Below, one piece after another: positions 7,240-30,005 of a DNA stretch of 43,037 bases. The notes beneath the pieces are model-generated. The model made no database searches. It was not told where the DNA came from and was given only the letters and a program-made list of their open reading frames with translations. The first letter of the stretch is position 1, and the number at the start of each line of letters is the position of its first letter. The translations under genes and the position numbers were made by a program. Origin of the DNA: a virus (Duplodnaviria > Caudoviricetes); IMG/VR virus record IMGVR_UViG_3300049144_000060, positions 1 through 43,037 of that record. The stretch is one strand, 5' to 3'.

Positions 7240-8151
7240 CTAGCGGGTGATGAAGAAAGCGCGGAAGATGTTCTGGATCTGCGTGTAGACGGCGCCGCCG
7301 GTGCCCTTACCGATCCGCACGTCTCCGGTGATCGTCACCGACCCGCCCGCCGGCACAGTGGCCTGGTACTGGAGCCACCGCGAGGACTGCAGGTGGGAGT
7401 CGATGAGGGTGGTGTTGCCGTTGTTGAAGGTGAGCCACATCTCCTCGCCGTCCTGCCCGTAGGCGGCGGACGACCCCGGCGGCAGCGTGAAGTAGACGTC
7501 GACTTCACGCTCGATGAACAACCTCGCGGACCGGCACGGGTCGGGGTTGGTGACCGTGACCGAGAACGTGTCCGCCGGCTCGATCAGATCGTTTCCGGTC
7601 GGTACCGGCACGCTGGGGTAGAAACGCACGTCGAAGTGGTTGCTGTAGTCGGTGCGGGCGCGCGGCTCGCCGTACAGGCGCCCCGTGGCCGGGTCACAGG
7701 CCACGACACCGCCGCTCGTGGCGATGTCGCACGCATACGGCCAGGGCCCGGTGTCGGCGATGAGCGGGTCCTCGGTCGTTCCCGCGCCGGTGAGGCCGCA
7801 GCCTGCCACCAGCTCGGACGCTGGCGCGTACAGGCCGTCGGCGCCCACGGTGAGCGTGTTGCCGGCGGCGTCGGACACGTCCGCGGCGAAGACGCCGGTG
7901 GCCGGGTCGTAGGTGATGCCGGGGCCGGCGGACAGGCACGGGCGGACCTGCGCGCAGTCCACCGTGCCACCGCCGCCGGGCGGCACGTACAGGCCGCCGG
8001 GGTCCAGGGTGAGTGCGTTGCCGGGGGTGTCGGACACGTCCGCGCCGACGATGTAGGGGTTGTCGGTGGATCCGGCCCCCTGTACCGAGATGCCGGGGCC
8101 TGGCAGGATCACGCAGTTGCAGGCGCCGCCGCCGCACTGGCACTTGGCCAT
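7240..8151 (-). CDS. minor tail/fibre protein A
   Basis: MAKCQCGGGACNC start; G.GS..NPY, AGN.L....GLY repeats; position at end of tail module. Confidence 0.8.
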   Translation of the reverse strand: MAKCQCGGGACNCVILPGPGISVQGAGSTDNPYIVGADVSDTPGNALTLDPGGLYVPPGGGGTVDCAQVRPCLSAGPGITYDPATGVFAADVSDAAGNTLTVGADGLYAPASELVAGCGLTGAGTTEDPLIADTGPWPYACDIATSGGVVACDPATGRLYGEPRARTDYSNHFDVRFYPSVPVPTGNDLIEPADTFSVTVTNPDPCRSARLFIEREVDVYFTLPPGSSAAYGQDGEEMWLTFNNGNTTLIDSHLQSSRWLQYQATVPAGGSVTITGDVRIGKGTGGAVYTQIQNIFRAFFITR

Positions 8152-8177
8152 GCTTCCCTCCGAAGGAGTGGAATTCG

Positions 8178-8211
8178 GCTCGGCCCAAAACCAGCAACCG
8201 CCACAATCATA
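8178..8211 (-). promoter_or_regulatory. late leader motif copy 1 (8178-8195) plus -10 TATGAT
   Basis: GCTGGTTTTGGGCCGAGC, 26 nt before ATG8151. Confidence 0.8.
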
Positions 8212-8251
8212 TGGTTCATCGAGCGCCGGTCCGACGACGCAGCGCAGGTCA

Positions 8252-8644
8252 TCACTGCACTGCGGTGTCCTCGTCCGCCGGGGTGTAGCGGGCCACTCGC
8301 GCGGCTACTTCCGCCGGCAGGAGCTTGACCAGCTCCAGGTATGTTTCCCGGGCTTGGGCTTGCTCCTGCGCGAGCTGCGCGGCCTCCCGGGCGGCTTGCT
8401 CTTCCTGCACGGCGGCTGTGGCCGCTTGGAACTCCTCTTCGGTGAGCCGTTCCGCGCCCTCCGGGGTGTGGACGTCTACGTCTCCGAACAGGGCTACCGT
8501 CCTCAGTCGACCGTCTGCCAGCCGGTAGTACCGCGTCACCAGGGTCGGGGGAGTTTCCTGCGGCGGCTCCTGCGGCCACGGCTCGTCCGGCGTAGGTTCC
8601 TGCGGCTCGTCCACCGGCTCACCTGTCGTGTCGTCCACGCTCAC
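8252..8644 (-). CDS. putative tail-fibre chaperone
   Basis: GTGA overlap with the stop of 8641..9483; similar to 6912..7229. Confidence 0.7.
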   Translation of the reverse strand: MSVDDTTGEPVDEPQEPTPDEPWPQEPPQETPPTLVTRYYRLADGRLRTVALFGDVDVHTPEGAERLTEEEFQAATAAVQEEQAAREAAQLAQEQAQARETYLELVKLLPAEVAARVARYTPADEDTAVQ

Positions 8645-9483
8645 TCCTGGGGGATAGAGAACAGCCACGCGCGCACGTTGGCTTGGATACGGGTGTACGT
8701 CGCGCCGCCGGCGCCGCGGTTCAGCGTGATCTGCATGGTGTGCGTGGTGGTGCCCCCCGCCGGCACCAACAAGTTGCTCATCACGCTGTGCTGGCTGTGC
8801 CAGAGGTTGATGGCCCCGCTGCCGGTGTTCCGCAGGTAGTTCACGTCGTCGGCGCCGATGGCGGAGGATGCTGCCCCGCCGTCCGCCGGCAGGTTGAAAA
8901 TCACGTCCACCTCTTGGTACAGCAGGGCGAACGCGGGCCGGCAGGGGTCCGGGTTGGGGATCTGCAGCGCGAGGGTGTCCACCACCGTCTCCGTCGACGG
9001 CACCGTCCGCGGGCTGGGCAGCAGTTCGTTGACGGACGCCTGCCGGAACGAGGACCGGAACGGGGGGTCCGTGCGCATCCGTCCGCTGACCGTGTCGCAG
9101 TAGACGTTTCCGCCGTTGGTGGCGATAGCGCACGTGTGCGGCCACGTCGCGGAGTTGACCCGCACCGGGCTGCCGCCCGAGCCGTCCCCGGTGAGCCCGC
9201 AGCCCGTGCTGACCGTGGCCGACCCCGTGGGCACGTACAAGCCGTTGGGGCGCCGCACCAGGTTGTTACCGGCGTCCTCCGACAGATCCACAGAGATCTG
9301 ACCGGTGGCCGGGTTGTACGTGATCCCGGACCCGTTGGACAGGCACTGCCGGACCTCCGCGCAGTTGGTGACCGCGCTGACCTCATACGGATTGGCCGTG
9401 GAGCCGGAGCCGGTGACCACCGTGTTGTCGCCGGCCTGGACGACGCAGTTGCACTGACTGCCGCCGCACTGGCACCTTGCCAT
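8641..9483 (-). CDS. minor tail/fibre protein B (paralogue of 7240..8151)
   Basis: GGAGG RBS; MARCQCGGSQCNC; colinear motifs NPDPCR, EVDV.F.LP, GGA.YT.IQ. Confidence 0.8.
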   Translation of the reverse strand: MARCQCGGSQCNCVVQAGDNTVVTGSGSTANPYEVSAVTNCAEVRQCLSNGSGITYNPATGQISVDLSEDAGNNLVRRPNGLYVPTGSATVSTGCGLTGDGSGGSPVRVNSATWPHTCAIATNGGNVYCDTVSGRMRTDPPFRSSFRQASVNELLPSPRTVPSTETVVDTLALQIPNPDPCRPAFALLYQEVDVIFNLPADGGAASSAIGADDVNYLRNTGSGAINLWHSQHSVMSNLLVPAGGTTTHTMQITLNRGAGGATYTRIQANVRAWLFSIPQE

Positions 9484-9509
9484 GCTGCCTCCGGGGAGGA
9501 GTACCCACG

Positions 9510-9542
9510 GCCCGGCCCAGAACCAGCAGCGCCCCAAGTCTA
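9510..9542 (-). promoter_or_regulatory. late leader motif copy 2 (9510-9527) plus -10 TAGACT
   Basis: GCTGGTTCTGGGCCGGGC, 26 nt before ATG9483. Confidence 0.8.
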
Positions 9543-10337: not shown

Positions 10338-10370
10338 GCCCGGCCCAAAACCAGCGACGCGAAAAGGGTA
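10338..10370 (-). promoter_or_regulatory. late leader motif copy 3 (10338-10355) plus -10 TACCCT
   Basis: GCTGGTTTTGGGCCGGGC, 28 nt before GTG10309. Confidence 0.8.
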
Positions 10371-12041: not shown

Positions 12042-12065
12042 GAAGCCCCCACGAGAGCGAAGGAG

Positions 12066-12100
12066 GCCCGGCCCACAACCAGACGGCTACGAGCAGAGTA
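12066..12100 (-). promoter_or_regulatory. late leader motif copy 4 (12066-12083) plus -10 TACTCT
   Basis: TCTGGTTGTGGGCCGGGC, 24 nt before ATG12041. Confidence 0.8.
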
Positions 12101-12107
12101 CGGCGAC

Positions 12108-13451
12108 TCAGTAGCCGCGGCCGGTCACAGCGATCGAGACTGTCGCGTCGTCCGCCGGAGGCACGATCTCATCCGTCTCCAGGCAGACGACGAGCGTGCC
12201 GCAGTCGATCAAAGGCCAGGTCGACGGCGTGCCGTCGCGGCCCCATACGCTCGTCGACGTCTCGCAGGAGCCGCCGCACTCCACGACGGCGCGGCCAATC
12301 TGCCCGTCGAGGGTGAGCGTCCCGGACGCGGGCACGAACCCGACTTCGAACACGGCGAGCGGATCGCATCGCTTCTTGTCCGCGACCTGCCCGGCCGTCA
12401 AGCCGGCGTCAGCGTCCGAACGTTCATAGAGAGAGATCGTGAGCCGGCGCAGATCCTCACTGCCGGCGTAGACAGTGATCACCGGCACGTCCGAGGACCA
12501 GGCGGGCCGGCCCATCAAGTCAAGGTCGTAGCACTCCCGGTTCGTCGCGAGCGCCATGCAAAAGCACGACGCCGGTGAGGACGGCTGCGGAGGAGCCGGC
12601 GGCGCGCACGTCGGATCCGCGCAGGCGGCTCCGGCGTCCGGGCAGCCGCGCAGCCGGCAGCCGCCGGGCTGGCACTGCGGCACCCAGTCCGGGAGCGTGT
12701 CGCGGTGGATGCACCACTGGATGCATTCGCTGTCGTCGTCCGTCGGCACGTTGACGGAGAGGATCGGCACCTCGTCCGTCCACGCCCACGGCGTAGCCGC
12801 ACTGAGCACGAACTCGACGGTGAGGATGTCGGCACCGGAGGAGCATTGTCCGGCCGCGCAGGAGCCGTCGCCCTTGCGTGCGGTGACGGTCGGCCCCTGC
12901 ACGAGCGCGACGCGGCGGAACGTGCGCCGATGCCGCGCCAGGAACTCCGCCGGCTCCTGGTCCTCGCCGGGGCAGCAGTTGAACATCTGAACGCAGTCGC
13001 CGCCGCACGCCGAGCCGGTGCAGCCCTGCAGAGCCTCGGCGAGCCAGTGAAGCCCGTACTCGACGGCGCAGCACGTCGCACCCAAGAGGATGCCGGTCAC
13101 GGTGATCGTGCGGGGCTGCACACGTGCGGGCCCGAATGCGCCGCCGCCGACGACCGCGTTCGTCACTGAGCGGCGCACGGGGTAGTCATCGACGCCGTCG
13201 AAGGCGAGCGGAAGGAACCCGACGAACTGCGCCGACTCCGGCACGTCGACGTCGTACCAGGGCGCCGGACTGTCGGGGTCGTCCGGCGTCGTATACGGCG
13301 CATGATCGAAGACGTCGTTCGTCAGCGCCTCGCAGCCGCAGACGTCGTCGGCGCCCGACGTCAGCGGAGATCCGATCGTTGCCAGGTAGGCGCGCAGACG
13401 GGCCGTGTTGATGACCTCAATACCGCCTACCGAAAGGAAGTCGGAGAGCAC
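12108..13451 (-). CDS. minor tail protein (distal-tail-like), Cys-rich
   Basis: First gene after tape measure; RTITVTGIL, VEFVLSAATPW. Confidence 0.75.
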   Translation of the reverse strand: MLSDFLSVGGIEVINTARLRAYLATIGSPLTSGADDVCGCEALTNDVFDHAPYTTPDDPDSPAPWYDVDVPESAQFVGFLPLAFDGVDDYPVRRSVTNAVVGGGAFGPARVQPRTITVTGILLGATCCAVEYGLHWLAEALQGCTGSACGGDCVQMFNCCPGEDQEPAEFLARHRRTFRRVALVQGPTVTARKGDGSCAAGQCSSGADILTVEFVLSAATPWAWTDEVPILSVNVPTDDDSECIQWCIHRDTLPDWVPQCQPGGCRLRGCPDAGAACADPTCAPPAPPQPSSPASCFCMALATNRECYDLDLMGRPAWSSDVPVITVYAGSEDLRRLTISLYERSDADAGLTAGQVADKKRCDPLAVFEVGFVPASGTLTLDGQIGRAVVECGGSCETSTSVWGRDGTPSTWPLIDCGTLVVCLETDEIVPPADDATVSIAVTGRGY

Positions 13452-13475
13452 GAGCGGACTCCTGTGTCGGAGGAC

Positions 13476-13508
13476 GCCCGGCCCACAACCAGCGGCATCG
13501 TCAGCTTA
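13476..13508 (-). promoter_or_regulatory. late leader motif copy 5 (13476-13493) plus -10 TAAGCT
   Basis: GCTGGTTGTGGGCCGGGC, 24 nt before GTG13451. Confidence 0.8.
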
Positions 13509-13522: not shown

Positions 13523-16399
13523 TCAGCCCAGCGCGTAGGCCATCGCCATGCGTCGCATGACGCGGGCGGCGGTCGCCTCGCCGTCGCCGACTTCGTTGAT
13601 CGTCCAGTAGTTGGTGACGACGGGACCAGCCGCGCCGCCGCCACTGCCTCCGCTGTCGGTAGCAGCGCCGATGATGTTCATCAGCCCGGACCGCTCAGCC
13701 AGCTCCCGCGCCCGCCGCGGCTTCGTCAGCGGGATGACGACCTCCGGCCCGTCGCCCTCGCCGATCAACGCCACCGTCGGCCCGGTGACGATCCCACCGT
13801 TCGCCAGCCCCGGGATGGCGTTACGGATCGCGGACGGCAGGCTGTTGCGGATACGGGACGCGATACTTCCGCCGATGTCACCGATGGCATTCAGCAGCTT
13901 CCCCGGCAAATCCTGGAACATCGCCACCAGACTGGAGATGAGCGCGGACGCGGCACCGCGAGCCCGGGTGGCAGCAGTACGGATCGCACCGGCAATCCGG
14001 CCGCCCAGCCCGGACAAAGCGCCGCCAACACGGCCGATCATGCCTCGAAACAGGCCCACCACCCGAGAGATGGCACCGGAGACGACGGACGACGCGCGGG
14101 ACATCATCGCCGTGAACGCGGCCGGCAGCCGACCGGCCAGCGTCGTGACAATGCCGGTCACGCGCGTGAACATCGTGGAGAAGAACGTGCCGACGCGGGT
14201 CAGGGCCCCACCGACCCGCGCCGCCGCCGTCGTCACCGCCGCTCCCAGCCGGCCCATCCATCCGATGACCGTGCCCGTCGCCCTGCTGATGGCGAAAAAC
14301 TGTGCGATCACCGCGACCAGCGGCGCGACGAGCTGAATCAACGGCGTGATCAGCCGCAGTACCCACGCGATGAGCTGCCCCAGCAGCGAGACGATCGGCG
14401 TCAGCAGCGGCGCCAGCTGCACGAACACGTTGACGACCGGCATGAACGCCAGCGCCACCTGCACCAGCGCCGGAGCCAGCGCCGTCAGGATCGGCGACAG
14501 AGCCTGAACGATCGGGATGAGTGCCTGCCCGAGTGCCATACCGAGCTGGAGAACTGGCTGGAGCAACTGCATGAGCACCGGAACGAGCGCGGTGAACACG
14601 GGCAAAAGGGCCGCTGACAGGGTCGACACCAGTTGCGTGACGACCGGCACGAACTGCTGGAACGCCGCGATGATCGGCTGGATCAAAGGGGTGAGGGCGG
14701 CGAGGATCGGCGCGAGCGCGGACGCGAACGCTGCCGCGAGCTGACCGACGATCGGCAGCAGCGGCGCCAGCGCGGCGAGGATCTGCCCGATCGCAGCGCC
14801 GAGCGGAGCGAGTGATGGACCCACCGCGGCGAACGCCTGCGCGAGGCCCTGCGCGACCGCTTGAATCCCCGGCATGATCGCCGCGATCGCCGGACCGAGC
14901 GCATTGATCACACCGACGATCGCCGGACCGAGGGCGGTGAGGATCGGACCGATCGCGGGAGCTATCGCACCTACCTGCGTCACCAGAGCAGCGAAGATCG
15001 GCCCGAGCTGCGCGGCGACCTGCGCCAGCGTCCGGAAAATGTTCGTCAGCGCCTCCTGACCGGCTGCGGAGTTGACGAACCGGTCAAAGCTGGCCGTGAT
15101 CGTCTCCAGGTTCCCCAGGAACCCGCCCCCCGCAGCAGACGCGGCCTCGAAAACCCCGGAGAGAACGCCCCCGACGTTGGACGCGATCCGCCCGAGCTGC
15201 GCGAACACGTCCAGCGCCGACCGGACCGCTTCCACGGCCTGCCCAGAGGCCGCCATCGTGGACAGCCACGTCCCGAACTGCGCGCCGAGTTGCCCGATCT
15301 GCGCACCAACCCCCGCGCCGAACGCGGTAGCAATAGCGGCACCGATGTCCAAGAAGCCCTTTGCCAAAGGAGCCACAGCCGTCTGGAGACCCGAAGCGGC
15401 CTGCGCCGTACCCTGCAAAAGCGCCCGGATCGGTGCCGCGGCCTGCGCGGACGCAGCGAACTTCAGGCCCGCGGCAGCGGCCTCGCCGAATTCCGCGGCG
15501 ATCCCGGCCAGGCCCGTGCGGAGCGGGCCCCCCAGGGCCTTCGCCGCGGAGGTGATCTGCCCCTCGAACTGCTTAAAGAAGGAGTCTTGAACGCTGGTCC
15601 GTAGCTCCTCAAACGCCGGCTTGAGGGCGCGGATCTCCTTCGCCGCGGCCTGCGCGGCCGGGGACAGGTCCTCCAGGGCCTCCGTGAACTCCTCGGCCGT
15701 CCCGGTGAGCGCGGCCTCGAACGCCTCTTGGACGCCCAGTAGCGCGATCTTGAGGGCGCCTAGCGCGGCCTGCCACCCGAGGATGAGCGCCGGGTATGCG
15801 GCGATGATCCCGGCCGCCGGAGCGAGCGCGGCCGTCAACGCGACCACGCCCTGCGCAGCACTTGCGGCGGCGATCCCGACCGCGCCGAAGCGCAGCAGCG
15901 AGCCGAGCATGGAGCCGACGCGGCCAGCGATCCCACCGAGACCGGCGAGTGCACTACTGAGCCGATCCGTATCGACGTCGGCATTCACCGTGACGTCCGG
16001 GGGGCTGTGGCCGCGGATCCGCGCGTCGAAGTCGCTCAGGTCCGGGACAACGCGGATGCTCACCTCTTCGCCGGCAAGCGCGGCACGCAGCCGCGTCATG
16101 AACTCGTCGAGATCCGGCGCGACGGGGATATTCAGTGAGTCAATCCCGCTCAGGCCAGCGAGGAGCTGCGCGTCGAAGCGCGAGAGATCCGGATCGACAC
16201 GGACGCTCACCGACGCAGCGGAAAGACCCCGCTGAATGTTCTGCCGAATCCTGTCGCCGGCGTTGCGCGTCGCGCGGACTAGTGCGCGCTGGATACGGAG
16301 CCCGAGGTCGCGTGACTCCTGGACGATCTCGCTGTCGTCGAGCGTGATCGTTATGCGGGCGGACCCGTAGTCCTCGCTGTCGCCGGCCGGAGTGGTCAC
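13523..16399 (-). CDS. tape measure protein (958 aa)
   Basis: Long Ala/Leu-rich helical protein with Pro-spaced repeats; C-terminal ANGGIV.GPT.ALIGE..GPEVVIPL; follows the chaperones. Confidence 0.92.
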   Translation of the reverse strand: MTTPAGDSEDYGSARITITLDDSEIVQESRDLGLRIQRALVRATRNAGDRIRQNIQRGLSAASVSVRVDPDLSRFDAQLLAGLSGIDSLNIPVAPDLDEFMTRLRAALAGEEVSIRVVPDLSDFDARIRGHSPPDVTVNADVDTDRLSSALAGLGGIAGRVGSMLGSLLRFGAVGIAAASAAQGVVALTAALAPAAGIIAAYPALILGWQAALGALKIALLGVQEAFEAALTGTAEEFTEALEDLSPAAQAAAKEIRALKPAFEELRTSVQDSFFKQFEGQITSAAKALGGPLRTGLAGIAAEFGEAAAAGLKFAASAQAAAPIRALLQGTAQAASGLQTAVAPLAKGFLDIGAAIATAFGAGVGAQIGQLGAQFGTWLSTMAASGQAVEAVRSALDVFAQLGRIASNVGGVLSGVFEAASAAGGGFLGNLETITASFDRFVNSAAGQEALTNIFRTLAQVAAQLGPIFAALVTQVGAIAPAIGPILTALGPAIVGVINALGPAIAAIMPGIQAVAQGLAQAFAAVGPSLAPLGAAIGQILAALAPLLPIVGQLAAAFASALAPILAALTPLIQPIIAAFQQFVPVVTQLVSTLSAALLPVFTALVPVLMQLLQPVLQLGMALGQALIPIVQALSPILTALAPALVQVALAFMPVVNVFVQLAPLLTPIVSLLGQLIAWVLRLITPLIQLVAPLVAVIAQFFAISRATGTVIGWMGRLGAAVTTAAARVGGALTRVGTFFSTMFTRVTGIVTTLAGRLPAAFTAMMSRASSVVSGAISRVVGLFRGMIGRVGGALSGLGGRIAGAIRTAATRARGAASALISSLVAMFQDLPGKLLNAIGDIGGSIASRIRNSLPSAIRNAIPGLANGGIVTGPTVALIGEGDGPEVVIPLTKPRRARELAERSGLMNIIGAATDSGGSGGGAAGPVVTNYWTINEVGDGEATAARVMRRMAMAYALG

Positions 16400-16427
16400 C
16401 GGGCACCCTCACGAAGTCGTGAATGGT

Positions 16428-16445
16428 GCCCGGCCCAGAACCAGA
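16428..16445 (-). promoter_or_regulatory. late leader motif copy 6
   Basis: TCTGGTTCTGGGCCGGGC, 28 nt before GTG16399; TAACCT at 16489-16484 beyond an intervening hairpin. Confidence 0.8.
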
Positions 16446-16486
16446 CGGCGAGCGGCAGCACGCGCGGCGCTGCCTTGTTTCTCAGG

Positions 16487-16809
16487 TTAGCCGCTGCGAC
16501 GGCTTGCGAGCTGTGCGTCTTCCGCCGCGACCTGCGCCATCAGCGCTCGCGCCTGGCCTGCGTCGACGCGTGCTGCGGCCGGTCGGCCGCGAGCTCGTTC
16601 ACCGCGAGGCGGCGCGTACAGCTTCGCGCGGATGCGCTGCCGCTCGGCGTCGTCCTCCGAAGACATCTCCATCGCGACCTCGGCCGCCGCGAGCATGGTG
16701 CTCAGCGTCCACGTGTGCGGGTCGACGCCTTGGAGGGCGAGGTGGCCGACCCACGAGTCCCACGACTCGGCGATACTGCCGCAGAGCCGCTGGACGACCC
16801 AGTAGGGCG
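16487..16809 (-). CDS. tail assembly chaperone, frameshifted C-terminal extension (gpGT-like)
   Basis: -1 frame PYWVVQRL...KLYAPP overlapping the upstream chaperone at CGC CCT AC. Confidence 0.7.
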
Positions 16810-17127: not shown

Positions 17128-17153
17128 AGGTCTTTCCCTGTCTCCCGTTCCTC

Positions 17154-17188
17154 GCCCGGCCCACAACCAGCAGCGCACTACGAGGGTA
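17154..17188 (-). promoter_or_regulatory. late leader motif copy 7 (17154-17171) plus -10 TACCCT
   Basis: GCTGGTTGTGGGCCGGGC, 26 nt before GTG17127. Confidence 0.8.
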
Positions 17189-20836: not shown

Positions 20837-20861
20837 GCCAGGAACCTCCTACTAGCAGGAG

Positions 20862-20897
20862 GCCCGGCCCAGAACCAGCGGCTCGCAAATCAGTTTA
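20862..20897 (-). promoter_or_regulatory. late leader motif copy 8 (20862-20879) plus -10 TAAACT
   Basis: GCTGGTTCTGGGCCGGGC, 25 nt before TTG20836. Confidence 0.8.
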
Positions 20898-21035: not shown

Positions 21036-24000
21036 TCAGCCGTTCGCCGACGACGGCGGTAGGAAGCAGGGGGCGACGCGCCAGCCGTCGGGCACGCTGT
21101 CCTGCCTCTGCCCGTCCTCGTCGAGGTAGTAGATCGAGTCGTCGCAGCACACCATCCGTGTCCACGACCGCGTCTCCGGGATCACCTGGTAGTACACGCG
21201 CAGGTGCACCATGAGGCCGGCGCCGCCGCCCACGGTCTCCTCGACGTCGAGGTAGAGCGCGTTGCGGCCGGCCTTGGCGCCGGGGATGGCGTCCGGCCCG
21301 AAGGTGTAGGTCGTGCCGTTGTGCGTGGCCGTGGCGGGCAGCGGCTGCCAGGCGCCATCGTTCAGGCGGAACGCGCGGCCAGCCTGGTCGGCGTTGAACA
21401 CAGTCGCCTGCACCCGGATGGTCGCCGGGTCCGCGTTGGTCGGCAGGTCGAAGAACGCCCGCGGGTACCAGTGCGTGTTCAGCAGCGACGGGCCCTCATT
21501 GGGTCGCGGCGGGCTCGCCTGCGCCGAGCGGCCGTCCGGGTGCGGGCTCACCCACCACGCCGGCCGTGCCGTGTCGGAGTCCCGCACCGTCCAGTCGGCG
21601 GAGAACTGGAACTGGTACATGTCGTACCAGGGCGGGTTCGCCACGCTCAGGTCCGTGGTCCACTTCCACACCGGGTCCACCGAATTGTCATTGCGGTGCG
21701 CCTCATTGGAGATGAACTCACGGACCTGCGTCGGGATCTGCTGAATGCACACCTGCACGGGCTGGCAGCAGGTGTCGCTGCAGGTGAGCGTCGCCCGCGC
21801 GGGCAGCGGTTGCCGGGAGTCCCCGTCAACGATGGAGATGACGCCGTGACAGTCCGCCAGCTTGAGCGCCGGCCACGGCACGGTCTGGGCGACGACGCCG
21901 CACAGCCGCTCGTTGTGCGGTGTCGGCGGGTCCGCGAACCCGACGGTGGTGATGGCCAGACGGAGTGGCGTGGAGAACTCGATACGGAACCGGTCGCCGG
22001 GCTCCAGGTTCAGTTTCGTGGTGTCCGCGTTGAGAGCCAGACCGTTGCCGGCCAGAGCGCGCAGCGTGATGGTGGTGCTGCCGACCTTCGCTGTCCCCAC
22101 GTAGGTTGGCGACGACTGCGTGGGGTGGGTGGGGATCGCCGGCTGGAAGAGGGCGAAGTTGATGTTCCCGCCCAGGTCGGAGCTGTAGAAGCCCATCCCG
22201 GAGATCGCGCCGGTATCCGACTGGTACGTTCCTTCCCAGGACGTGACGCGGTCGCCGTAGGTGTAGCCCGGGTTGGTGGCGGTGCCCAGCCAGCAGTCAG
22301 GGTACGACACACTGTCGAGGGTGAAGCCCACGGCGGTGTCGGGCATCGAGTAGACGCATTCGCTCATCACCGTGGTGTCGCACGGCTGCGGCTCCGTGCA
22401 CTGCCCGACCACCCCCAGTGGGGTGTACGGCGTGACGCCGTCCACTGTGGTGTCGGTGACGCTGGTGACCTGGCCGTCGCAGTCCCGGCAGATATGCCGC
22501 ATGAACTGCCCGGCGGGCACGACGTTGATCGCGCCGACCCACGAGGTGTGGAACTGCCCGCACGCGGCGAAGCGGTTGCCGAGGTAGGCCGTCCTCAGAG
22601 ATGCCACGGGCTCTGTGGTGCGGAACCGTGCTGCCACGGCGCGCGTCGGGTTGGTCAGGTTCGGGCACTGCTCGCCCACCTGCCCGGCGGTTACGCACAC
22701 CTGGTTCGTTGCCGGGTTGTAGACGAAGCCTGTGGGCAGTGAGATGACCTCGACGCCGGGCGGGAGCTGCATGCAGTTGTCGTCCGCCTGCGCCGCTGCC
22801 GAGTCGTAGGCCATGTAGACGGAGAACTCGATGAAGGACGGTCGGCTGAAGGTGAATGTGTACGGCGGGGCGGCGATGTTCGGGAAGTTCTCCGGCCTGC
22901 CCCACCAGGCGCCATCGGCGTTGGTGACTTTGCTGGGGGTCGGGGCGCCGCTGCCGCGCACACTCCAGGTCACGCCGTTCGTGAGCGTCCCGGAGGACAC
23001 GCCGGAGCCCGTGATGGTAGCGGGCACGTCGGCGCCCTGGTCGCACAGGATCAGCGTCTCGCAGTTCTGGCATGCCGGCGCAGGCGCCGCTGTGGTGCCG
23101 ATGCACGGCACGATGACCGCGTCGTCCACGATGTCGCCGCTGTTCGCGTCGCGGACGGCGGGAACGCCCGTGCCCCACTCGACGTAGCCGGACCTCACGG
23201 CAGCCCCGGAGACGACCTCGATGGCGAAGTCGACCGTGGCGTTGCCACTCAGGGTGATGACCGAGCCGTCCTCGAAGTCCAGCGCCGTGAACGCGCCAGG
23301 GTTGTCGGTGACGATCCGGCCCGAGCCGCCGCCGGGCACGGTGAACGTCAGCGTGTGTGGGCCGTTGGTCTGGGTGAGCGTGCCGTCCGCGTAGGTCACG
23401 CCCGGCTGCGCGCCCTCCACCAGGGCGGAGACCTGCGCGCCGCCGCAGTCCACGGTCAGCGTCGCCTCGTAGGAGGAGAAGAGGTCGATCTCCCGCCAGC
23501 CGATGTCCGGGGCGACCGTGCCCGTCGACGTCGGGAACTTCGCCAGGTTGGACAGCCGCATCCGCACCACGCCGTCCAGGTTGCCGACCGGCGTCACGCA
23601 CGGCGTGGCATAGGCGCTGTTGCTGCTGTAGGTGCAGGTGACGAGGGGGCCGGTGAACAGGACCGCGTCGGCGGCGTTGTAGAGCGTGACCGTGGCGGAG
23701 CCGATGCCGTCGTTGTCGGTGACGATGCCACCGAAGCCGTTCCACAGCCGGACGGCGGTGACGTTGTCGCGGGGCTCCGACAGCCGGTAGTCGATGACGA
23801 CGGCGGTGTTCCCCTGGAACTGGTCGCAGTCGATGACACCGGTAGGGGCGGACGGGCCGCCCGCGCCGGTGACGTCCCCGTTGAACGTGCTGTCCAGGGC
23901 GTCCTGAAGGATCTGGAAGTTCAGCGGGTTGTCGACCACACGCGCGGAGATGAAGCGCGGCTGCGGGATGTCCGTGATCTGCACGTTGCTGCACGGGCCG

Positions 24001-25172
24001 TAGGAGGTCGTGGACCGGTAGCAGACCATCTCCCGGTCCGGGCCGTCCGAGGTGAGCGGCTGGCAGACGCCGGCCGTGCCGAGGACCGTGTACGGGGTGG
24101 TGCCGTTCAGGGCGGTGTCGGTGACGGCGGTGACCGTGCCGTCGCAGGTCCGGCAGATAGTCCGCAGGAAACTGACCGGCTCGGGGTTGAGCGTGATGCC
24201 ACCGAACTGGAACGGGCCGATCTCCGTGCAGGCCGGGGCCGCAGCTCCGAGGTAGTGCACCTGGAATGACGGCACGGGGGTGGTGATGAGGAACCGCGCC
24301 GACGTGGCGTTGAGCGGGGTCTGGAAGGTCGAGCACGGCGCCTGATTGGCAGTGGCATCCACCGTGAGCCTGCCGGTTGCCGCGTCGTAGGCGTAGCCGG
24401 CCGGGAGGTTGATGACCGTGAGCCCGGCGGGGAGCTGCGCCGTAGCGGGCGTGCCGCCGCCACCGCCGCTGTAGCGCATGACGACGCTGAAAGCGACCGT
24501 GGCCGGCGAGTCCAGCTCGACCGTGGTCAGCCCGTAGGCGGCATTGGGATAGGTGGCGACCGTCCACCAGGCGCCGTCCGCGGTGTCCTTGACCGACTCG
24601 AACGGCGCATCGGCGTCGCCCAGCACCGTCCACCCGATGCCGTTCTCGGCGACGCCCTGCGCCGCGTTGTCACCCCGGATCACTCCCGGCTGCGTGCCGG
24701 GCGGGGAGAGACGGTCGCAGAGCTGGATGGTCTCGCAGTCGTCGCACTGCGGCGGGATGCAGGCGCCGACGGTGCCGGTGACGGTATACGGGGCGCCGTC
24801 GAGCGTGAGGTCGGTGTGCCCGTCCGGCTCGCCCGTCGCGCAGTCGTAGGAGTAGCGGCGCAGGAACCGGACGGGGTCGCCGCCGCCGGGCGGGGTGTCG
24901 CACAGCAGTTCCGTGTGACTGTCGCAGCCGTTCTCGCCGGGGCAGTGCTTCAGTTCACCCTGCGGCGTGTACGCCTCGCCGGTGGCCGGGTCAACGGTGC
25001 GGGTGCCGATACGGTCGCCGCTGCTGACGTCGTACACCGGCTCCAGCAGCACCGTCTTGGCGACCGTGCCGTCCGGGAGGACGTCGCACAGGATCTCGGT
25101 CTCCACGTCCACTCTGGTGGGCGGCACCGCCTGGTTGAAGATCACGGGCTGTCCGCAGCCGCATCCGCTCAC
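21036..25172 (-). CDS. giant Cys-rich modular protein (1378 aa), putative head fibre/adhesin
   Basis: GTGA overlap start MSGCGCG; LCD...FLR...DG.TPY...G..G.C repeats with inserted beta-rich domains. Confidence 0.8.
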   Translation of the reverse strand: MSGCGCGQPVIFNQAVPPTRVDVETEILCDVLPDGTVAKTVLLEPVYDVSSGDRIGTRTVDPATGEAYTPQGELKHCPGENGCDSHTELLCDTPPGGGDPVRFLRRYSYDCATGEPDGHTDLTLDGAPYTVTGTVGACIPPQCDDCETIQLCDRLSPPGTQPGVIRGDNAAQGVAENGIGWTVLGDADAPFESVKDTADGAWWTVATYPNAAYGLTTVELDSPATVAFSVVMRYSGGGGGTPATAQLPAGLTVINLPAGYAYDAATGRLTVDATANQAPCSTFQTPLNATSARFLITTPVPSFQVHYLGAAAPACTEIGPFQFGGITLNPEPVSFLRTICRTCDGTVTAVTDTALNGTTPYTVLGTAGVCQPLTSDGPDREMVCYRSTTSYGPCSNVQITDIPQPRFISARVVDNPLNFQILQDALDSTFNGDVTGAGGPSAPTGVIDCDQFQGNTAVVIDYRLSEPRDNVTAVRLWNGFGGIVTDNDGIGSATVTLYNAADAVLFTGPLVTCTYSSNSAYATPCVTPVGNLDGVVRMRLSNLAKFPTSTGTVAPDIGWREIDLFSSYEATLTVDCGGAQVSALVEGAQPGVTYADGTLTQTNGPHTLTFTVPGGGSGRIVTDNPGAFTALDFEDGSVITLSGNATVDFAIEVVSGAAVRSGYVEWGTGVPAVRDANSGDIVDDAVIVPCIGTTAAPAPACQNCETLILCDQGADVPATITGSGVSSGTLTNGVTWSVRGSGAPTPSKVTNADGAWWGRPENFPNIAAPPYTFTFSRPSFIEFSVYMAYDSAAAQADDNCMQLPPGVEVISLPTGFVYNPATNQVCVTAGQVGEQCPNLTNPTRAVAARFRTTEPVASLRTAYLGNRFAACGQFHTSWVGAINVVPAGQFMRHICRDCDGQVTSVTDTTVDGVTPYTPLGVVGQCTEPQPCDTTVMSECVYSMPDTAVGFTLDSVSYPDCWLGTATNPGYTYGDRVTSWEGTYQSDTGAISGMGFYSSDLGGNINFALFQPAIPTHPTQSSPTYVGTAKVGSTTITLRALAGNGLALNADTTKLNLEPGDRFRIEFSTPLRLAITTVGFADPPTPHNERLCGVVAQTVPWPALKLADCHGVISIVDGDSRQPLPARATLTCSDTCCQPVQVCIQQIPTQVREFISNEAHRNDNSVDPVWKWTTDLSVANPPWYDMYQFQFSADWTVRDSDTARPAWWVSPHPDGRSAQASPPRPNEGPSLLNTHWYPRAFFDLPTNADPATIRVQATVFNADQAGRAFRLNDGAWQPLPATATHNGTTYTFGPDAIPGAKAGRNALYLDVEETVGGGAGLMVHLRVYYQVIPETRSWTRMVCCDDSIYYLDEDGQRQDSVPDGWRVAPCFLPPSSANG

Positions 25173-27001
25173 AGGTCCACTCCTGTCGTCCAGTTGATCG
25201 TTATGGCCCCGGTGGCGGCCTCGATGGTCAGCGGCCCGATGAGCCGCACGTCCACGTCCCGGGTGATGGACCACTGCGCGGTCTCGCCGTCGTGCAGGGT
25301 GCTCGTGCCGTCGGCGGTGGTGATGGTGCCGGTGCCGCCCCAAGCGGTCGCCTGCACGGCGCGCAGCGTCCCGTGCGCGGCGGCGGTCCAGGTCTGGCCG
25401 GCGGCGAGCTCGACGCGGTGCGCCTGCACGCCGATGGGCCGCTCGGGCACCGCGTCCGGGGAGTCGCAGTCCACCGGCGCGGTGGGGGTGTACGGCCCCG
25501 ACAGGTCACACAGGTAGGTGCCGAGGCTGGTGACGTTGCCTGCGCAGTCCACGCCGAGCATCTCGGTATACGTGACGTCCGCGATGCCGTCGCCGTTGGT
25601 GTCGTCGCAGCGCTCGGCCTGGACCAGGTTGGTCACCGGGCAGTCGTCGGGGCCACAGACGCCCACGGTGCCCGTCACCCGGTAGGGGGTGACGCCGTCC
25701 AGGGTGACGTCCGCAGTGTCGAGGACGTAGCCGCTGCACGTGGTGGTGATCTTCCGCAGGAACGGCGTCGACTGCCCGTCGGCCGTGACGTCGCACAGCA
25801 TCTCGAACGTGCTGCCGCACGGCTCCGGGGCCGGGGCCTCACCGTCGTCGGTGTCGCAGTCGATCGGCGCTACGGGCTCGTAGACGTCCGCCAGGTCGCA
25901 CGTGCGGGTGGCGAGGCTGGTGACATTGCCTTCGCAGTCCACCGCGAGGAGCTCGATGTACGTAGTGTCGGGCTGCCCGTCGCCGTCGGTGTCGTCGCAG
26001 CGCTCCGCCTGGATGATGTTCTGGACGTCGCAGCCGGTGTCGCATACGTCGACGGCGCCGCTCGGGGTGTACGCGGCGCCGTCGAGCGTGTAGTCCGTGT
26101 GGCCGGTGATCTGGCCGTTCTCGTCGCGCATGTAGTCGCGCAGGATGCGGCGCACGCTGCCGTCCGCCCGCGTCTCGCACAGCACGACGAGATCCTTCTC
26201 GGGCTGCGCGACGCCAGCCGGGCAGGTCGTGATCTCGCCCTGTGGCGTATAGAGCTGGCCCGTCGTCGCGTCGACGATACGGACGCCGGACACGCCGCCG
26301 TCCGGGCTGTAGGTGTACTCGATCAGGACGAGTCCGTACACGGTGCCCGTGCCGGGGTCGACGTCGCAGAACGTGCCGGTCGTCGACACGCTGCGCGGCG
26401 TGCCGCACGCGACTACGCCTGCCGGGGGCCGGCCGGCCGAGTAGGCGCCCGTCGCAAGGTTCAGCCAGCCCTCTTGCCGGATCGCGCCGTCGCAGTCGCG
26501 GGTGACGAGGACGCCGATCGGTGTGCCGTCGGCGAGGCATAGGCCGAGCGTCGCGACGGGGGCGTGCTGCTCGGCGCAGTCCGAGCCGCCGTCGCACGAG
26601 CGGACGGTGCCGATGACGACGTGCGGGGTCTCGCCGTCGACTTCTACGTCGAGGTAGGCGGCGGTGCCGTTCGACAGGAACGTGAACTTTCGCAGGAACG
26701 GGCGGCCGGAGTCGTCGCAGAGCAGTTCGGTGTGGCACTGCATGGTGCCGTGCTCGCAGTCGACTGGCGAGACGGGCGTGTACGGCTCGGACGGGTCGCC
26801 CTGGTAGGTGAGGACGAGCTGGCTGGTGCCGTCCTGCTGAATGCACCACAGCTCGCTGTAGGTGGTGTCGGGCAGGCCGTCACCGGTTGTGTCGTCGCAG
26901 CGCAGGACGCAGGTTGTGGTGACGCACGTGGGGGGGCATTCGCATTCGCCTCCGCCGCCTCCCCCGGCGCCGCAGGTGCAGCCGCTGTAGGAGATGGCCA
27001 T
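25169..27001 (-). CDS. Cys-rich repeat protein (610 aa) with Dx[DNT]xDG loops
   Basis: Repeats CDDTxGDG.PD.TY.EL and LCD....FLR....DG.TPY..G.V..C. Confidence 0.85.
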   Translation of the reverse strand: MAISYSGCTCGAGGGGGGECECPPTCVTTTCVLRCDDTTGDGLPDTTYSELWCIQQDGTSQLVLTYQGDPSEPYTPVSPVDCEHGTMQCHTELLCDDSGRPFLRKFTFLSNGTAAYLDVEVDGETPHVVIGTVRSCDGGSDCAEQHAPVATLGLCLADGTPIGVLVTRDCDGAIRQEGWLNLATGAYSAGRPPAGVVACGTPRSVSTTGTFCDVDPGTGTVYGLVLIEYTYSPDGGVSGVRIVDATTGQLYTPQGEITTCPAGVAQPEKDLVVLCETRADGSVRRILRDYMRDENGQITGHTDYTLDGAAYTPSGAVDVCDTGCDVQNIIQAERCDDTDGDGQPDTTYIELLAVDCEGNVTSLATRTCDLADVYEPVAPIDCDTDDGEAPAPEPCGSTFEMLCDVTADGQSTPFLRKITTTCSGYVLDTADVTLDGVTPYRVTGTVGVCGPDDCPVTNLVQAERCDDTNGDGIADVTYTEMLGVDCAGNVTSLGTYLCDLSGPYTPTAPVDCDSPDAVPERPIGVQAHRVELAAGQTWTAAAHGTLRAVQATAWGGTGTITTADGTSTLHDGETAQWSITRDVDVRLIGPLTIEAATGAITINWTTGVDL

Positions 27002-27384: not shown

Positions 27385-27386
27385 CG

Positions 27387-28223: not shown

Positions 28224-28249
28224 CTGCCTCACGCCCTCTCGCTGTTCGG

Positions 28250-28284
28250 GCGCAGCCTCGGCCGGCAGATGGCCGAGGCTGCGC
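28250..28284 (-). terminator. 14-bp hairpin after the major capsid gene
   Basis: GCGCAGCCTCGGCC-N7-GGCCGAGGCTGCGC. Confidence 0.7.
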
Positions 28285-28296
28285 GCAACGGGTGGG

Positions 28297-29943
28297 TTAG
28301 GCGGTCGGGCAGGCGACGGCGGCGCGCGGGCCGACGGAGCCGTCGGCGCACACCGGGATGGTGATGGCGCGAGCCTGGGGGCCGCGGTAGATGAGCGCGT
28401 TGCAGGACTCGAAGAAGAGGGCGGTCATGTCGTTGGTGCGCAGCAGGGTGCTGTCGTGCACGACACCGAGGTTGATCTCCGGGCCGCGGCCCATCTGGAA
28501 CGCACCGGCCGGGTAGAGCAGGGCCTGCACGGTGGCGGGCCAAGCGGTGGCGGGGGTCGTGTTGCCGATCTGGGTGGGGACGGCCGGGGGCAGGCCCTTG
28601 ACCCACTGGACGCGGACGCCGAGGTCGGCGAAGGCCTGCTCGACGCAGTTCTGGTTGAGGTCGCAGACGTTGACGCCGTCCCTGCGGGCGATGTCGGCGA
28701 GGAACATGTTGCGCGCCCAGTACGGCAGGACCAGCTCGAGGCCGATCCGCTCGCACAGGCTGAAGCGCTCGGTCATGTCGGCGATCTGCAGGGCGAGCGC
28801 CCCGTACACGGCGGAGAAGGAGGCGAAGCTGGTGGCGGTGGTGACGGGCGTGGCCTTCGTGAGGGCCTGCTGGTACATGGCGGCCTTGAGACGCATCTCG
28901 TAGGCGACCATGGCGCGGCGGATGTAGAAGGTGGTCAGCTCGGGGAAGAACCGCTGGGAGAGGATGCCGGCCTGGATGCAGGCGCCGTAGGCGGTGCAGC
29001 GGACCTCGACCGGGTCCACACAGGGGATCTTGAAGCACGGCTTGGTGGGGTCACCGTCGACCGCGCTGATGTCGTCGGCTTCGGTCCACACCCACGACAT
29101 CGCGGTGACGTCCAGCTCGGGCGTCATGTAGTAGCGCAGCCCGCCCCGGGACAGGTTGAGTTCGGGCAGGTCCCACAGGTTGTCCGGGCAGGAGATCTCG
29201 GTGAAGTCGTAGACGGTCTCCGAGGGGGCGCACCAGCCGCCCGAGGCGACGAGGTCGCCGCCCTTCAGACGCTTCTGGTCCGCGGCCCGCATCAGCTTGG
29301 TGGTGCCCTCCTCCGGAGACCCCGCATCGTTGATGATCAGGTCCTGGGAGAACGGCAGCTGGTACGACGCGGCGTAGGCCTTGCCGCCGCTCGCGACGAG
29401 CCCGGCGACCTTGGTGACGGACTCGGTCAGCCCGTCCATGTCCAGGGGCGCGCCGAGAGTGGCGCCGGGGACCTCGGCGGAGGCGACGATCGTGACGGCC
29501 GGGGTGCCGGACTGGGGCATCGGCTGGCGCGGCTGCCGCTCCCGCACCGTGGCGAGGCTGATGATCGGACGCCGCACGACGGCGGAGGACGCGGCGACCT
29601 CCTCGACGACCGGCTCCTCCTCGGTGGCGGGCTCGGCCGGTTCGTCCGTCTCGGCGGCGGGGCTGTCGTCGGTGTCGGTGACGGCTTCCTCGCCGAGGAC
29701 CTGGGCGGCGAGTTCGTCGAGTTCGGCGACGGCGGCCTGGGCGGCTTCGACGCGCTGGGTCTGCTCGGCGCGCAGCGCTTCGATGCCGGTGGCCAGCTCG
29801 CGCAGGGCGGGCAGGTCTTCGGTGGTGAGGTTGGGGTCCTGGCGCCGGGCGTTGAACGCCTCGACGGCGGCGGCGAGGGTGGCGTCGAGGTCCTCGCTGC
29901 TGAGGCTGGTGAAGTCGTCGGGAAGCTGGAAGGGCTCGGACAT
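28297..29943 (-). CDS. major capsid protein (hexamer-type) with N-terminal scaffold-like region
   Basis: AGGAG RBS before ATG29943; acidic coiled-coil N-terminus; LVASGGWCAPSETVYDF, LPE...RGG, KPC..IPC, DSTL..TND.TALF.E. Confidence 0.85.
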   Translation of the reverse strand: MSEPFQLPDDFTSLSSEDLDATLAAAVEAFNARRQDPNLTTEDLPALRELATGIEALRAEQTQRVEAAQAAVAELDELAAQVLGEEAVTDTDDSPAAETDEPAEPATEEEPVVEEVAASSAVVRRPIISLATVRERQPRQPMPQSGTPAVTIVASAEVPGATLGAPLDMDGLTESVTKVAGLVASGGKAYAASYQLPFSQDLIINDAGSPEEGTTKLMRAADQKRLKGGDLVASGGWCAPSETVYDFTEISCPDNLWDLPELNLSRGGLRYYMTPELDVTAMSWVWTEADDISAVDGDPTKPCFKIPCVDPVEVRCTAYGACIQAGILSQRFFPELTTFYIRRAMVAYEMRLKAAMYQQALTKATPVTTATSFASFSAVYGALALQIADMTERFSLCERIGLELVLPYWARNMFLADIARRDGVNVCDLNQNCVEQAFADLGVRVQWVKGLPPAVPTQIGNTTPATAWPATVQALLYPAGAFQMGRGPEINLGVVHDSTLLRTNDMTALFFESCNALIYRGPQARAITIPVCADGSVGPRAAVACPTA

Positions 29944-29971
29944 TGCCGTGACTCCTGGTGTGATCACAGGA

Positions 29972-30005
29972 GCCCGGCCCAAAACCAGCGGCGTATTCGA
30001 TTGTG
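29972..30005 (-). promoter_or_regulatory. late leader motif copy 9 (29972-29989) plus -10 CACAAT (alternative TAAGAT 30020-30015)
   Basis: GCTGGTTTTGGGCCGGGC, 28 nt before ATG29943. Confidence 0.8.

Follow-up and report, generated by a model that had tools for sequence, protein, structure and literature searches.

The window, a stretch of 43,037 nucleotides from a Streptomyces-type phage, contains nine copies of a 21-base motif, CTGGTTNTGGGCCGG. As the initial annotation had reported, all nine lie on the minus (coding) strand ahead of virion genes. Eight are exact matches and one has a single mismatch, and they stand 41-45 nt 5' of the starts of nine capsid and tail genes. A TANNNT hexamer (-10), overlooked in that annotation, lies upstream of every copy:

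29972..29992 (-), major capsid motif hairpin; start 29943; RBS-hiding stem 29950-29974 and flanks
30015-30020 (TAAGAT, the same as the orthologue's box) and 30000-30005 (CACAAT), major capsid -10 candidates
20862..20882 (-), major tail protein motif; TTG 20836; -10 TAAACT 20892-20897; RBS-hiding stem about 20837-20868
17154..17174 (-), tail assembly chaperone motif; GTG 17127; -10 TACCCT 17183-17188
17126-17141, separate stem ACAGG/CCTGT of the tail assembly chaperone leader
16428..16449 (-), tape measure motif with one additional bulge base; GTG 16399; -10 TAACCT 16484-16489, a further hairpin sitting between box and motif
16399-16433, tape measure RBS-hiding stem, the strongest among the window leaders
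13476..13496 (-), motif of a distal-tail-type minor tail gene; GTG 13451; -10 TAAGCT 13503-13508; stem 13451-13480
12066..12087 (-), motif of a minor tail/hub gene with one additional bulge base; ATG 12041; -10 TACTCT 12095-12100; stem 12043-12069
10338..10358 (-), motif of a glycine-rich tail-fibre gene; GTG 10309; -10 TACCCT 10365-10370; occlusion weak
9510..9530 (-), motif of "fibre B" (a label from the initial annotation; no family match was found for the gene); ATG 9483; -10 TAGACT 9537-9542; stem 9479-9511 covering the AUG
8178..8198 (-), "fibre A" motif, variant GUUG...GAGC with U-A instead of C-G at -2:14; ATG 8151; -10 TATGAT 8206-8211

The same arrangement recurs in related phages. 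The coding strand carries 424 of 426 stem-complete copies, and TANNNT is found at -28 to -15 in 322 of the 426, against 38 and 6 in two control windows. No -35 consensus was detected upstream of the copies, leaving the -10 boxes bare. The hexamer never begins nearer to the motif than -16, which places the first motif base at about +1, and with a bare box ahead of each copy the motif likely opens the mRNA. On its other side, among 320 leaders chosen for having the motif within 36-65 nt of the start codon, 298 have it at 41-50 nt, a distance also kept in tape-measure leaders, where the -10 box is far away.

The motif had been proposed to fold as CUGGU/GCCGG, with the variable base in the loop. 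The base is indeed in the loop, but the register does not hold: among 272 non-redundant copies, the outer pair 0:14 is paired in 243 and never shows a two-sided change. The copies instead describe a doubly bulged hairpin, GCY-G-C-U-GG...CC-G-RGC, in which four pairs covary. Pairs 0:13, -2:14, -3:15, and -4:16 are paired in 271, 270, 271, and 268 of the 272, with many double changes, which come from several gene groups; the mutual information is diagonal, and the four pairs hold 64 G-U cells against 2 A-C/C-A cells. The unbulged 7-bp stem once assigned to two GUCUG copies falls as well, since the added base varies over 16 such copies (12 A, 3 T, 1 C), as expected of a bulge insertion rather than a seventh pair. 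Nearest-neighbour energies count against the explanation we favor: they prefer the original register (-5.2 versus -3.0 kcal/mol). At -3.0 kcal/mol, the covarying fold is the minimum-energy fold in none of 103 distinct motifs, which suggests that the hairpin needs a ligand. The bulged G is invariant and the loop falls into conserved classes (positions 4-8: TTNTG, TTNAG, YGNTA and similar). Such conservation in a fold that is not of minimum energy implies recognition. No Rfam 15 covariance model matched the motif in the window, although 21 nt may be too little sequence for a match to register; the sole match there at E up to 1 was a sub-threshold sar at 2751-2817, far from the motif.

The initial annotation also held that each leader can take either of two folds that exclude one another, the RBS-burying one being the default. 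Predicted energies for 320 orthologous leaders, together with three-way compensatory change, support this, and two of the outcomes that had been named as refuting it, stability no greater than in shuffles and a lack of covariation, were not what we observed. The computed cost of opening the RBS has a median of 15.5 kcal/mol, which falls to 9.6 when the motif is blocked; 246 control leaders lacking the motif give 10.9. Blocking the motif saves 5.8 kcal, versus 1.0 for a block of equal size in controls. The RBS helix is predicted to win at equilibrium, and a block on the motif to restore RBS accessibility to control levels. The opening cost exceeds that of the leader's own spacer shuffles in 253 of the 320; because the leader sequences are related, p-values here overstate independence. 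The 3' arm of the hairpin pairs with the RBS or start in 34/34 capsid, 39/39 tape measure, 78/84 major tail, and 45/50 fibre leaders. Arm variants are matched downstream in 12/19 (U16), 10/18 (A15), 9/13 (U13), and 6/16 (A14) leaders, spread over 4-8 sequence clusters each, and where the 3' arm is mutated, its 5' partner and the RBS-side strand often both change too. Natural arm variants retain occlusion, while the same arm put into consensus leaders costs them about 2 kcal. The GAGC arm test was not significant (p 0.09), nor were swaps of RBS halves between orthologues for hub (13/23), gly-rich (14/25), and chaperone (27/54) leaders. On sequence comparison, then, the position, strand, and register of the motif and both putative pairings of the same arm are conserved.

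Occlusion strength varies strongly by gene, and capsid is among the most occluded. The effect is weak in gly-rich leaders (15/25 above shuffles), and blocking the motif still leaves some SD stem in several leaders (tape measure 17.3 and fibre A 15.4 kcal). Of the seven RBS stems originally drawn in the window, our script found six as written; the major-tail stem, though real, was unmatched because the innermost of the pairs drawn for it would leave a loop of just 2 nt. All seven are present in predicted minimum-energy folds, the capsid stem in a partly shifted register. Against whole-leader dinucleotide shuffles, folding was more stable for tape measure (z = -5.6), capsid (-3.1), hub (-2.5), fibre A (-1.9), and distal tail (-1.8), but within chance for major tail (-0.7), fibre B (-0.4), gly-rich (+0.3), and chaperone (+0.5). 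For the chaperone, the separate stem drawn earlier was found, but not the switch by the motif: no motif-dependent occlusion was computed (20/54 leaders above shuffles; motif shuffle p 0.6).

We think it reasonably probable that the element is a two-fold translational switch on the nine late genes, opened by a phage-encoded RNA-binding protein. Each gene's bare -10 box would give a transcript starting at or just before the motif. During transcription the hairpin is predicted to form first and to give way when the SD or start comes out, only about 1-11 nt ahead of the start codon. Its 3' arm would then swap into the stronger helix over the Shine-Dalgarno sequence and start codon, so that translation is likely off. 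A phage protein may recognise the bulged shape, clamp the hairpin, and free the ribosome site; its binding would activate translation, not repress it, and capsid and tail synthesis would be held back until lytic growth. In the chaperone leaders, simple strand swap is no explanation; there the separate stem adjoins the hairpin, as in Mu mom. The switch had been thought to gate the whole virion programme. This is not so, because the terminase and portal operons, each behind a -10 box of its own, have leaders without the motif. They provide internal controls:

36494..36537 (-), portal operon, TATAGT box and a leader without the motif; opening the RBS costs 9.1 kcal/mol
38480, start of the gene ahead of terminase, a similar control; RBS opening cost 10.0 kcal/mol

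The same two folds could have a transcriptional output. The long RBS helix, or the untranslated RNA behind it, would stop transcription early, by Rho or at a U-less terminator, and a factor bound to the nascent hairpin would serve as an antiterminator or attenuator switch. The motif's place at the predicted 5' end, its early folding, its tandem occurrence in 23 of 123 major-tail leaders, and the C-rich spacer behind it would suit this. However, it is the distance to the start codon that is tight, whereas that to the -10 hexamer is spread over -16 to -24 and may include another hairpin; the competing helix covers the SD and start, and every gene already has its own -10 box. We therefore regard a transcriptional output as unlikely. 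Equally unlikely is a host reader (30S, S1, or another conserved actinobacterial RNA-binding protein), for which the hairpin would be a structured landing site needing no phage key. In its favour, the element is kept in phages of Streptomyces, Gordonia, Rhodococcus, Mycobacterium, and Microbacterium whose early genes differ greatly, and no universal phage regulator was found. Yet a key supplied by the host alone leaves the default-off helix unexplained. Moreover, in 17 of the 18 host genomes searched, almost all pattern matches fell in tight clusters, and the clusters examined were prophages. The element is thus phage-side, and host mRNAs seem not to use the motif.

Less probable again is a leader with no trans factor, in which a brief co-transcriptional window for ribosome loading tunes stoichiometry, or one bound by a repressor protein. 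The early, transient hairpin and the gene-dependent occlusion would fit, but the invariant bulged G and conserved loop classes imply recognition, holding the hairpin would open rather than close the RBS in most leaders, and the capsid gene needs high output despite its occlusion. A 5'-end stability or processing tag of late mRNAs, with or without bound protein, would suit a hairpin at the predicted +1; we give it little credence, since the motif lies away from the 5' end in tape-measure leaders and second tandem copies, and covariation with the RBS side is left unexplained. The initial annotation had offered a phage sRNA as an alternative key. In antisense-controlled leaders of the P1 c4 or toehold type, the trans RNA is complementary to its target, and the high conservation of the motif within a phage would agree with a toehold switch. 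But in 68 of 123 loci the copies carried by a single phage are set apart by double changes, 14 loci hold two loop classes, and intramolecular covariation is unexpected in an antisense target, which makes an sRNA very unlikely; no full-length antisense copy was found in the window, and none with <=1 mismatch on the minus strand of the complete TurkishDelight genome. A DNA operator or downstream promoter element, suggested by repeated sequence adjoining -10 boxes, is hardly credible given the G-U-rich covariation on the coding strand, the variable -10 spacing, and the pairing with the RBS.

Returning to the translational switch, its hairpin is likely read by a protein, for which the window offers three candidates:

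30336..30488 (-), candidate 1, a basic, DUF7196-like MxCxC protein of 50 aa, late in the portal/protease gene run that lacks the motif; next to it, at 30067-30336, comes a second gene of similar appearance
34267..34464 (-), candidate 2, a 65-aa CxxC...CxxH protein between portal and MuF, with relatives in 11 of 15 genomes compared
31086..33458 (-), candidate 3, the region of the capsid maturation protease, which has a winged-helix domain embedded at about aa 283-337; found only in Streptomyces-type relatives

Candidate 1, just upstream of the capsid promoter, is the best lead. Many structural proteins here likewise begin with Cys-rich motifs, so it may itself be a virion protein. The small Cys-rich candidates gave no family or fold match, and no match to the family of Com, a CCCC zinc-finger protein, was found among the 57 ORFs of the window, which is without much of the early region. 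Beyond head and tail genes, few genes are common to the 15 genomes compared. The MxCxC gene is also present in Casend, where no motif was seen. A wider reading, which we hold only tentatively, is that one tiny DUF7196-like protein of a new RNA-binding family runs the late programme of a large group of actinophages at translation. The group would comprise Streptomyces prophages, TurkishDelight, clusters BG, DC, DE, and EC, and mycobacterial cluster B, in which host-type -10-only promoters would yield locked capsid and tail mRNAs, all opened via the shared bulged hairpin. If true, translation of many genes would be activated as one regulon, and the 21-nt switch-and-key pair would be portable.

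In translational riboswitches and RNA thermometers, two exclusive folds likewise exist, one of which hides the SD. Here, in contrast, there is no Rfam match, and what is conserved spans only 21 nt and recurs ahead of structural genes, so that a protein fits better than a metabolite. A small bulged hairpin near the transcript 5' end, read by a viral peptide, is also used in lentiviral TAR-Tat and lambdoid nut/boxB-N, but those systems target the elongation of transcription, at one or two sites. The likeness is one of resemblance only, two single bulges one pair apart recalling BIV TAR.

The part of a 2022 review considered here (PMC9262239) describes few mycobacteriophage late promoters as characterised and their regulation as in need of study. 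The element offers a concrete answer for one large phage lineage, and a testable one because cultured Streptomyces, Gordonia, and mycobacterial phages carry it, with laboratory hosts at hand (Wizard/Gordonia terrae, TP1604/Streptomyces griseus, Rosebush/Mycobacterium smegmatis). For annotation, the motif is a marker of where virion genes truly start and where their transcription likely begins.

Among actinophage repeats, the SAS of cluster K mycobacteriophages, as given in part of the report on it (PMC3203893), is a 13-bp sequence, GGGATAGGAGCCC, with an SD, 3-7 bp before the starts of non-structural genes. SAS and ESAS are there described as repeated in one orientation upstream of starts, absent from the host, and proposed to act in translation initiation, with ESAS repeats that do not support RNA pairing. 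Our motif shares the single orientation and placement upstream of start codons, but on that account differs in sequence, stands clear of the SD at 41-50 nt upstream, is found ahead of virion genes, and shows covariation at the RNA level.

The closest parallel is Mu Com, in the part of PMC6483171 considered here a small phage protein proposed to melt a translation-inhibition structure of the single mRNA mom on binding a short hairpin, recognising CC(N)2-3GAG in the loop. Here too, going by covariation and folding, a putative ligand hairpin adjoins or overlaps a structure that covers the site of translation initiation, the chaperone leaders excepted. Unlike mom, however, up to nine or more leaders share the hairpin in one genome, the targets are capsid and tail genes, the hairpin is doubly bulged with a variable loop, and its own arm forms the predicted inhibitory helix. 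The Com motif is absent from the loop (CCGAG occurs in only 3 of 272 copies and is not the bipartite motif). The element would work like Com/mom, yet it belongs to another RNA family. Should the reader be a phage protein, this single-gene principle would be extended to a regulon of structural genes, the protein would likely define an RNA-binding family that is new, and actinobacterial engineering would gain a compact translational switch. In four prophages, a motif copy also lies ahead of a DAM-like + GNAT gene (PF22555 + PF22559), a DNA-modification-type, mom-like target.

The window carries nine copies of a 21-nt motif, all on the coding strand and 41-45 nt upstream of the starts of the genes for the capsid, the major tail, the chaperone, the tape measure, two minor tail proteins, the glycine-rich fibre and two 'fibre' genes. 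The full unit reads GYYG(+1)CTGGTTNTGGGCCGRGC and is numbered here from the C of CTGG (position 0). Scanning viral contigs for the exact 21-mer returned at least 212 loci, and 424 of 426 stem-complete copies lie in the coding-strand orientation.

The motif is almost certainly an RNA hairpin. Copies for covariation analysis were collected with the anchor TGG-N4-RGGCC plus a -10 box, with the flanks left free; this gave 921 anchor matches in 146 loci, 400 with the box and 272 non-redundant. Positions 1-3 and 9-12 are set by the anchor and have no power to show covariation, and the other stem pairs are as follows.

Pairing at stem positions outside the anchor (272 copies)
Pair 0:13: C-G 256, A-U 11, G-C 2, U-A 2, unpaired 1
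Pair -2:14: C-G 207, U-G 47, U-A 16, unpaired 2
Pair -3:15: C-G 236, U-A 21, U-G 10, A-U 3, G-C 1, unpaired 1
Pair -4:16: G-C 248, A-U 11, G-U 7, U-A 2, unpaired 4

Every one of the 272 copies has a bulged G, followed in 16 by one additional base. Mutual information is 0.13-0.40 on the diagonal and at most 0.05 elsewhere, and double changes in the stem are seen in several gene groups. Across the covarying pairs there are 64 G-U cells versus 2 A-C or C-A cells, which favours RNA over a DNA cruciform. The initial annotation had drawn the stem as CUGGU against GCCGG. That register is rejected: its outer pair, 0:14, is paired in 243/272 copies, and among 23 aligned sequences chosen by hand for their variants it shows no double changes, versus 12 for the corrected register. 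By computed energy it reaches -5.2 kcal/mol, whereas the covarying fold is weak (median -3.0 kcal/mol), and none of 103 distinct motifs has it as its minimum-energy structure. That selection maintains a fold which energy alone would not favour suggests that tertiary contacts or a bound ligand may lie behind its conservation. For the loop, we compared closure by 4:10, leaving five bases, with closure by 4:9 and base 10 bulged; by eye, the former is favoured in B1/B4 and ReqiPine5 and the latter in one genome (L312). Loop positions 5 and 8 covary (U-G versus G-A).

Each of the nine window copies has a TANNNT hexamer upstream, as do most copies elsewhere. Among the matches listed, 188 non-redundant copies gave 164 hexamers starting at -16 to -24. 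Under a looser anchor the hexamer lies at -28..-15 in 322 of the 426 stem-complete copies, whereas two control windows yield 38 and 6. The other 104 include 28 that stand behind another copy in tandem. No consensus for a -35 or activator box was found upstream of the motif, the -35 region being unconserved among the 188 listed copies. Ordinary sigma-70 promoter spacing fixes +1 relative to the -10 hexamer. The hexamer starts at -16 in 42/272 copies and at -15 in none, so that -16 is the closest approach; with that spacing, the first motif base would fall at +1 or later of the transcript.

The leaders very probably have two conserved alternative folds, the second of which pairs the 3' arm of the hairpin with the RBS side. 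The RBS stems quoted in the initial annotation are present in the window, except that the innermost pair quoted for the major tail would close a 2-nt loop and the capsid stem is predicted in a partly shifted register. When the motif is kept from pairing (blocked), the RBS opening cost falls by 14.3 kcal/mol for the tape measure, 5.3 for the capsid and -0.7 for the chaperone, and by 9.4, 7.6, 5.8, 5.6, 3.0 and 1.8 kcal/mol in the other six leaders. For four window leaders, 1-8 of 100 spacer shuffles were at least as costly to open as the real sequence, and for the other five 10-59 of 100; whole-leader z scores were clear in three, borderline in two and null in four. Among 320 non-redundant orthologous leaders the median opening cost is 15.5 kcal/mol free and 9.6 blocked, and 246 motif-less leaders have a median of 10.9. 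Blocking saves 5.8 kcal, compared with 1.0 for a same-size block in controls, and the saving reaches at least 3 kcal in 235/320 motif leaders versus 61/246 controls. Observed costs exceed those of spacer shuffles in 253 of the 320 leaders and those of swaps with an orthologue's RBS half in 209. The exceptions are the chaperone leaders, with 20/54 above shuffles, and the glycine-rich leaders (15/25); in hub leaders the swap test was not significant.

The strongest sign of the second fold is three-way change, in which the arm, its 5' partner and the RBS side vary together. With chaperone leaders left out, a Watson-Crick match on the RBS side accompanies the U16 arm in 12/19 leaders (8 clusters), A15 in 10/18 (7 clusters), U13 in 9/13 (6 clusters) and A14 in 6/16 (4 clusters). 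Natural arm variants retain occlusion (GGGU +2.1, GGAC +0.9, GAGC 0.0 kcal). When 40 consensus leaders were given a variant arm, the loss was 2.25 kcal for GGGU (p 6e-5), 2.15 for GGAC (p 0.002) and 1.5 for GAGC (p 0.09, not significant), all p-values counting kin sequences as independent and thus overstating significance. In consensus folds from orthologue-group alignments the helix is visible and clean double changes are few, because its register slides. CC stands immediately 5' of the start codon in 171/320 motif leaders versus 68/246 controls, and a GCN second codon follows in 168/320 versus 66/246; both enrichments agree with arm pairing to CC-AUG-GC, although the GCN excess disappears in single-gene comparisons (hub, distal tail). 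In growing-transcript folding the hairpin core pair is lost a median of 1-11 nt ahead of the start codon, and so brief a lifetime of the nascent hairpin would leave a ligand only a short window.

Activation of translation by a phage protein that binds the hairpin is the best mechanism we can offer, and a somewhat favoured one. That the binding factor is instead a host component is improbable, and an antisense RNA in its place is unlikely. PMC6483171 proposes for the Mu Com/mom system that hairpin binding melts an inhibitory structure, and the window leaders may work similarly, with a hairpin ligand opening the structure over the RBS. The motif is not in the Com/mom family, since its sequence differs, no Com was found and its targets are many. 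Nor does it belong to SAS/ESAS as described in PMC3203893, and Rfam gave no match. No description was found in the literature searched, most subscription papers being outside its reach; term searches found no mention in PMC5559632, PMC11536984 and PMC5737381 (main text), nor was there any in the full text of PMC5511901.

To look for the binding factor, gene content was compared across 15 genomes or prophage regions and two additional partial pieces. Once a DUF1360 protein and the genes recognisable as head or tail components were set apart, the comparison left only a few small candidates. The following features bear on the search.

30067-30336 and 30336-30488, minus strand: two adjacent small genes with similar starts (MxCxxC and MxCxC), both with a YxVV strand; they may have arisen by duplication
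31086-33458, minus strand: capsid maturation protease with a winged-helix domain at about aa 283-337, conserved in 17 Streptomyces-type sequences
L248:46587-46973: stand-alone RapZ C-terminal RNA-binding domain (PF22740), gp55 of the cluster BG phage TP1604

The small gene at 30336-30488, encoding the 50-aa MxCxC protein, has its counterparts immediately 5' of the capsid leader in all lineages inspected. It belongs to a motif-less gene run, which fits a candidate factor produced ahead of its targets. The protein is basic, with a predicted small beta-beta-alpha-beta domain (pLDDT 81). Its Rosebush counterpart is DUF7196 (E 5e-20); the window protein has no Pfam match, only Atlas clusters with 14-24% DUF7196, and neither the model (best Foldseek E 1.8; best Z 4.1) nor a PDB sequence search gave a useful match. 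It may equally be a virion protein; Rosebush gp14 is not listed in the virion mass-spectrometry tables S3 and S4, but only large gel bands were cut for these, so its absence carries no information. Weaker leads are the 65-aa CxxC gene (34267-34464, minus strand), present in 11/15 genomes, and the protease winged helix, confined to Streptomyces-type sequences and not found in Wizard, Rosebush or the other cultured phages scanned. Rejected as candidates were WhiB (10/15 genomes; missing in Wizard, Rosebush and the window), the HTH gene before the terminase (7/15) and the RapZ-type protein, matched in TP1604, the genome scanned with PF22740.

The motif core precedes 44/45 capsid, 112/123 major tail, 92/97 chaperone and 72/79 tape-measure genes, fractions inflated because motif-fetched loci are counted in. 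It is found in 19/87 distal-tail leaders and in none of 116 adaptor, 18 portal, 31 protease or 41 orthologous leaders of the 610-aa phrog_18824 gene. In the window, a -10 box also stands ahead of the terminase and portal operons; their leaders are motif-less and their RBSs open. Nine copies occur in TurkishDelight, including two that are the second of a tandem pair; TP1604 has two and Wizard four, and the Gordonia phage records examined have the motif at three or four places each. Unscored calls by eye gave variants in the capsid leaders of Ribeye, Phorgeous, ReqiPine5, Rosebush and Phaedrus, more diverged ones in Oosterbaan, ChrisnMich and MellowYellow, and none in Casend. Host genomes picked for carrying such a prophage matched in 17/18 cases, nearly all matches lying in tight clusters. 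Close to one chromosome end (L400 ~6855; G004:C1:8656839), surrounded by IS elements, a lone perfect motif with a -10 box precedes a 46-aa ORF. Four prophages have a distant copy before a 485-aa gene, a likeness to Mu mom; the one domain-scanned is as follows.

L401:6445-7902 (prophage in G017): 485-aa gene, DAM-like (PF22555) plus GNAT-like (PF22559), preceded by a motif leader and lying 5' of the terminase region

Similar N-termini occur in G005, G006 and G015, and this is likely a late DNA-modification gene.

The window is a siphovirus piece of 43 kb and ~69% GC. Its minus strand bears genes for terminase, portal, protease, major capsid, tail and lysis; an integrase is present too, and most of the early region appears to be missing. 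Prophages in Streptomyces genomes encode versions of its major tail protein with as much as 91% identity, and the closest cultured phages are TurkishDelight and cluster BG, followed by Gordonia, Microbacterium and mycobacterial cluster B phages, from which we infer a Streptomyces-like host. Other features of the window are listed below.

33545-34331 and 31086-33458, minus strand: MuF and protease in a single long reading frame (31086-34331), a fusion like TurkishDelight gp15
36170-36493, minus strand: CxxC-containing DUF1360 membrane protein, encoded ahead of the portal and present in all genomes compared
16487-17127, minus strand: an overlapping pair of chaperone ORFs in different frames, a layout typical of programmed frameshifting
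17224-18123 and 30494-30967, minus strand: T5orf172-type and HNH endonuclease genes inserted within the structural region
2751-2817, plus strand: strong hairpin directly 5' of the integrase start, with a weak, sub-threshold sar RNA score (E 0.26)
21036-27001, minus strand: a pair of very long, repetitive, Cys-rich genes separating capsid from major tail (1377 and 610 aa, phrog_18824)

A 2'-5' RNA ligase-like domain is weakly matched in the TurkishDelight, TP1604 and Mischief19 fusions, with no match in the window. Numerous virion proteins in these phages are Cys-rich, so that a role of the DUF1360 protein in disulfide formation would be a guess.
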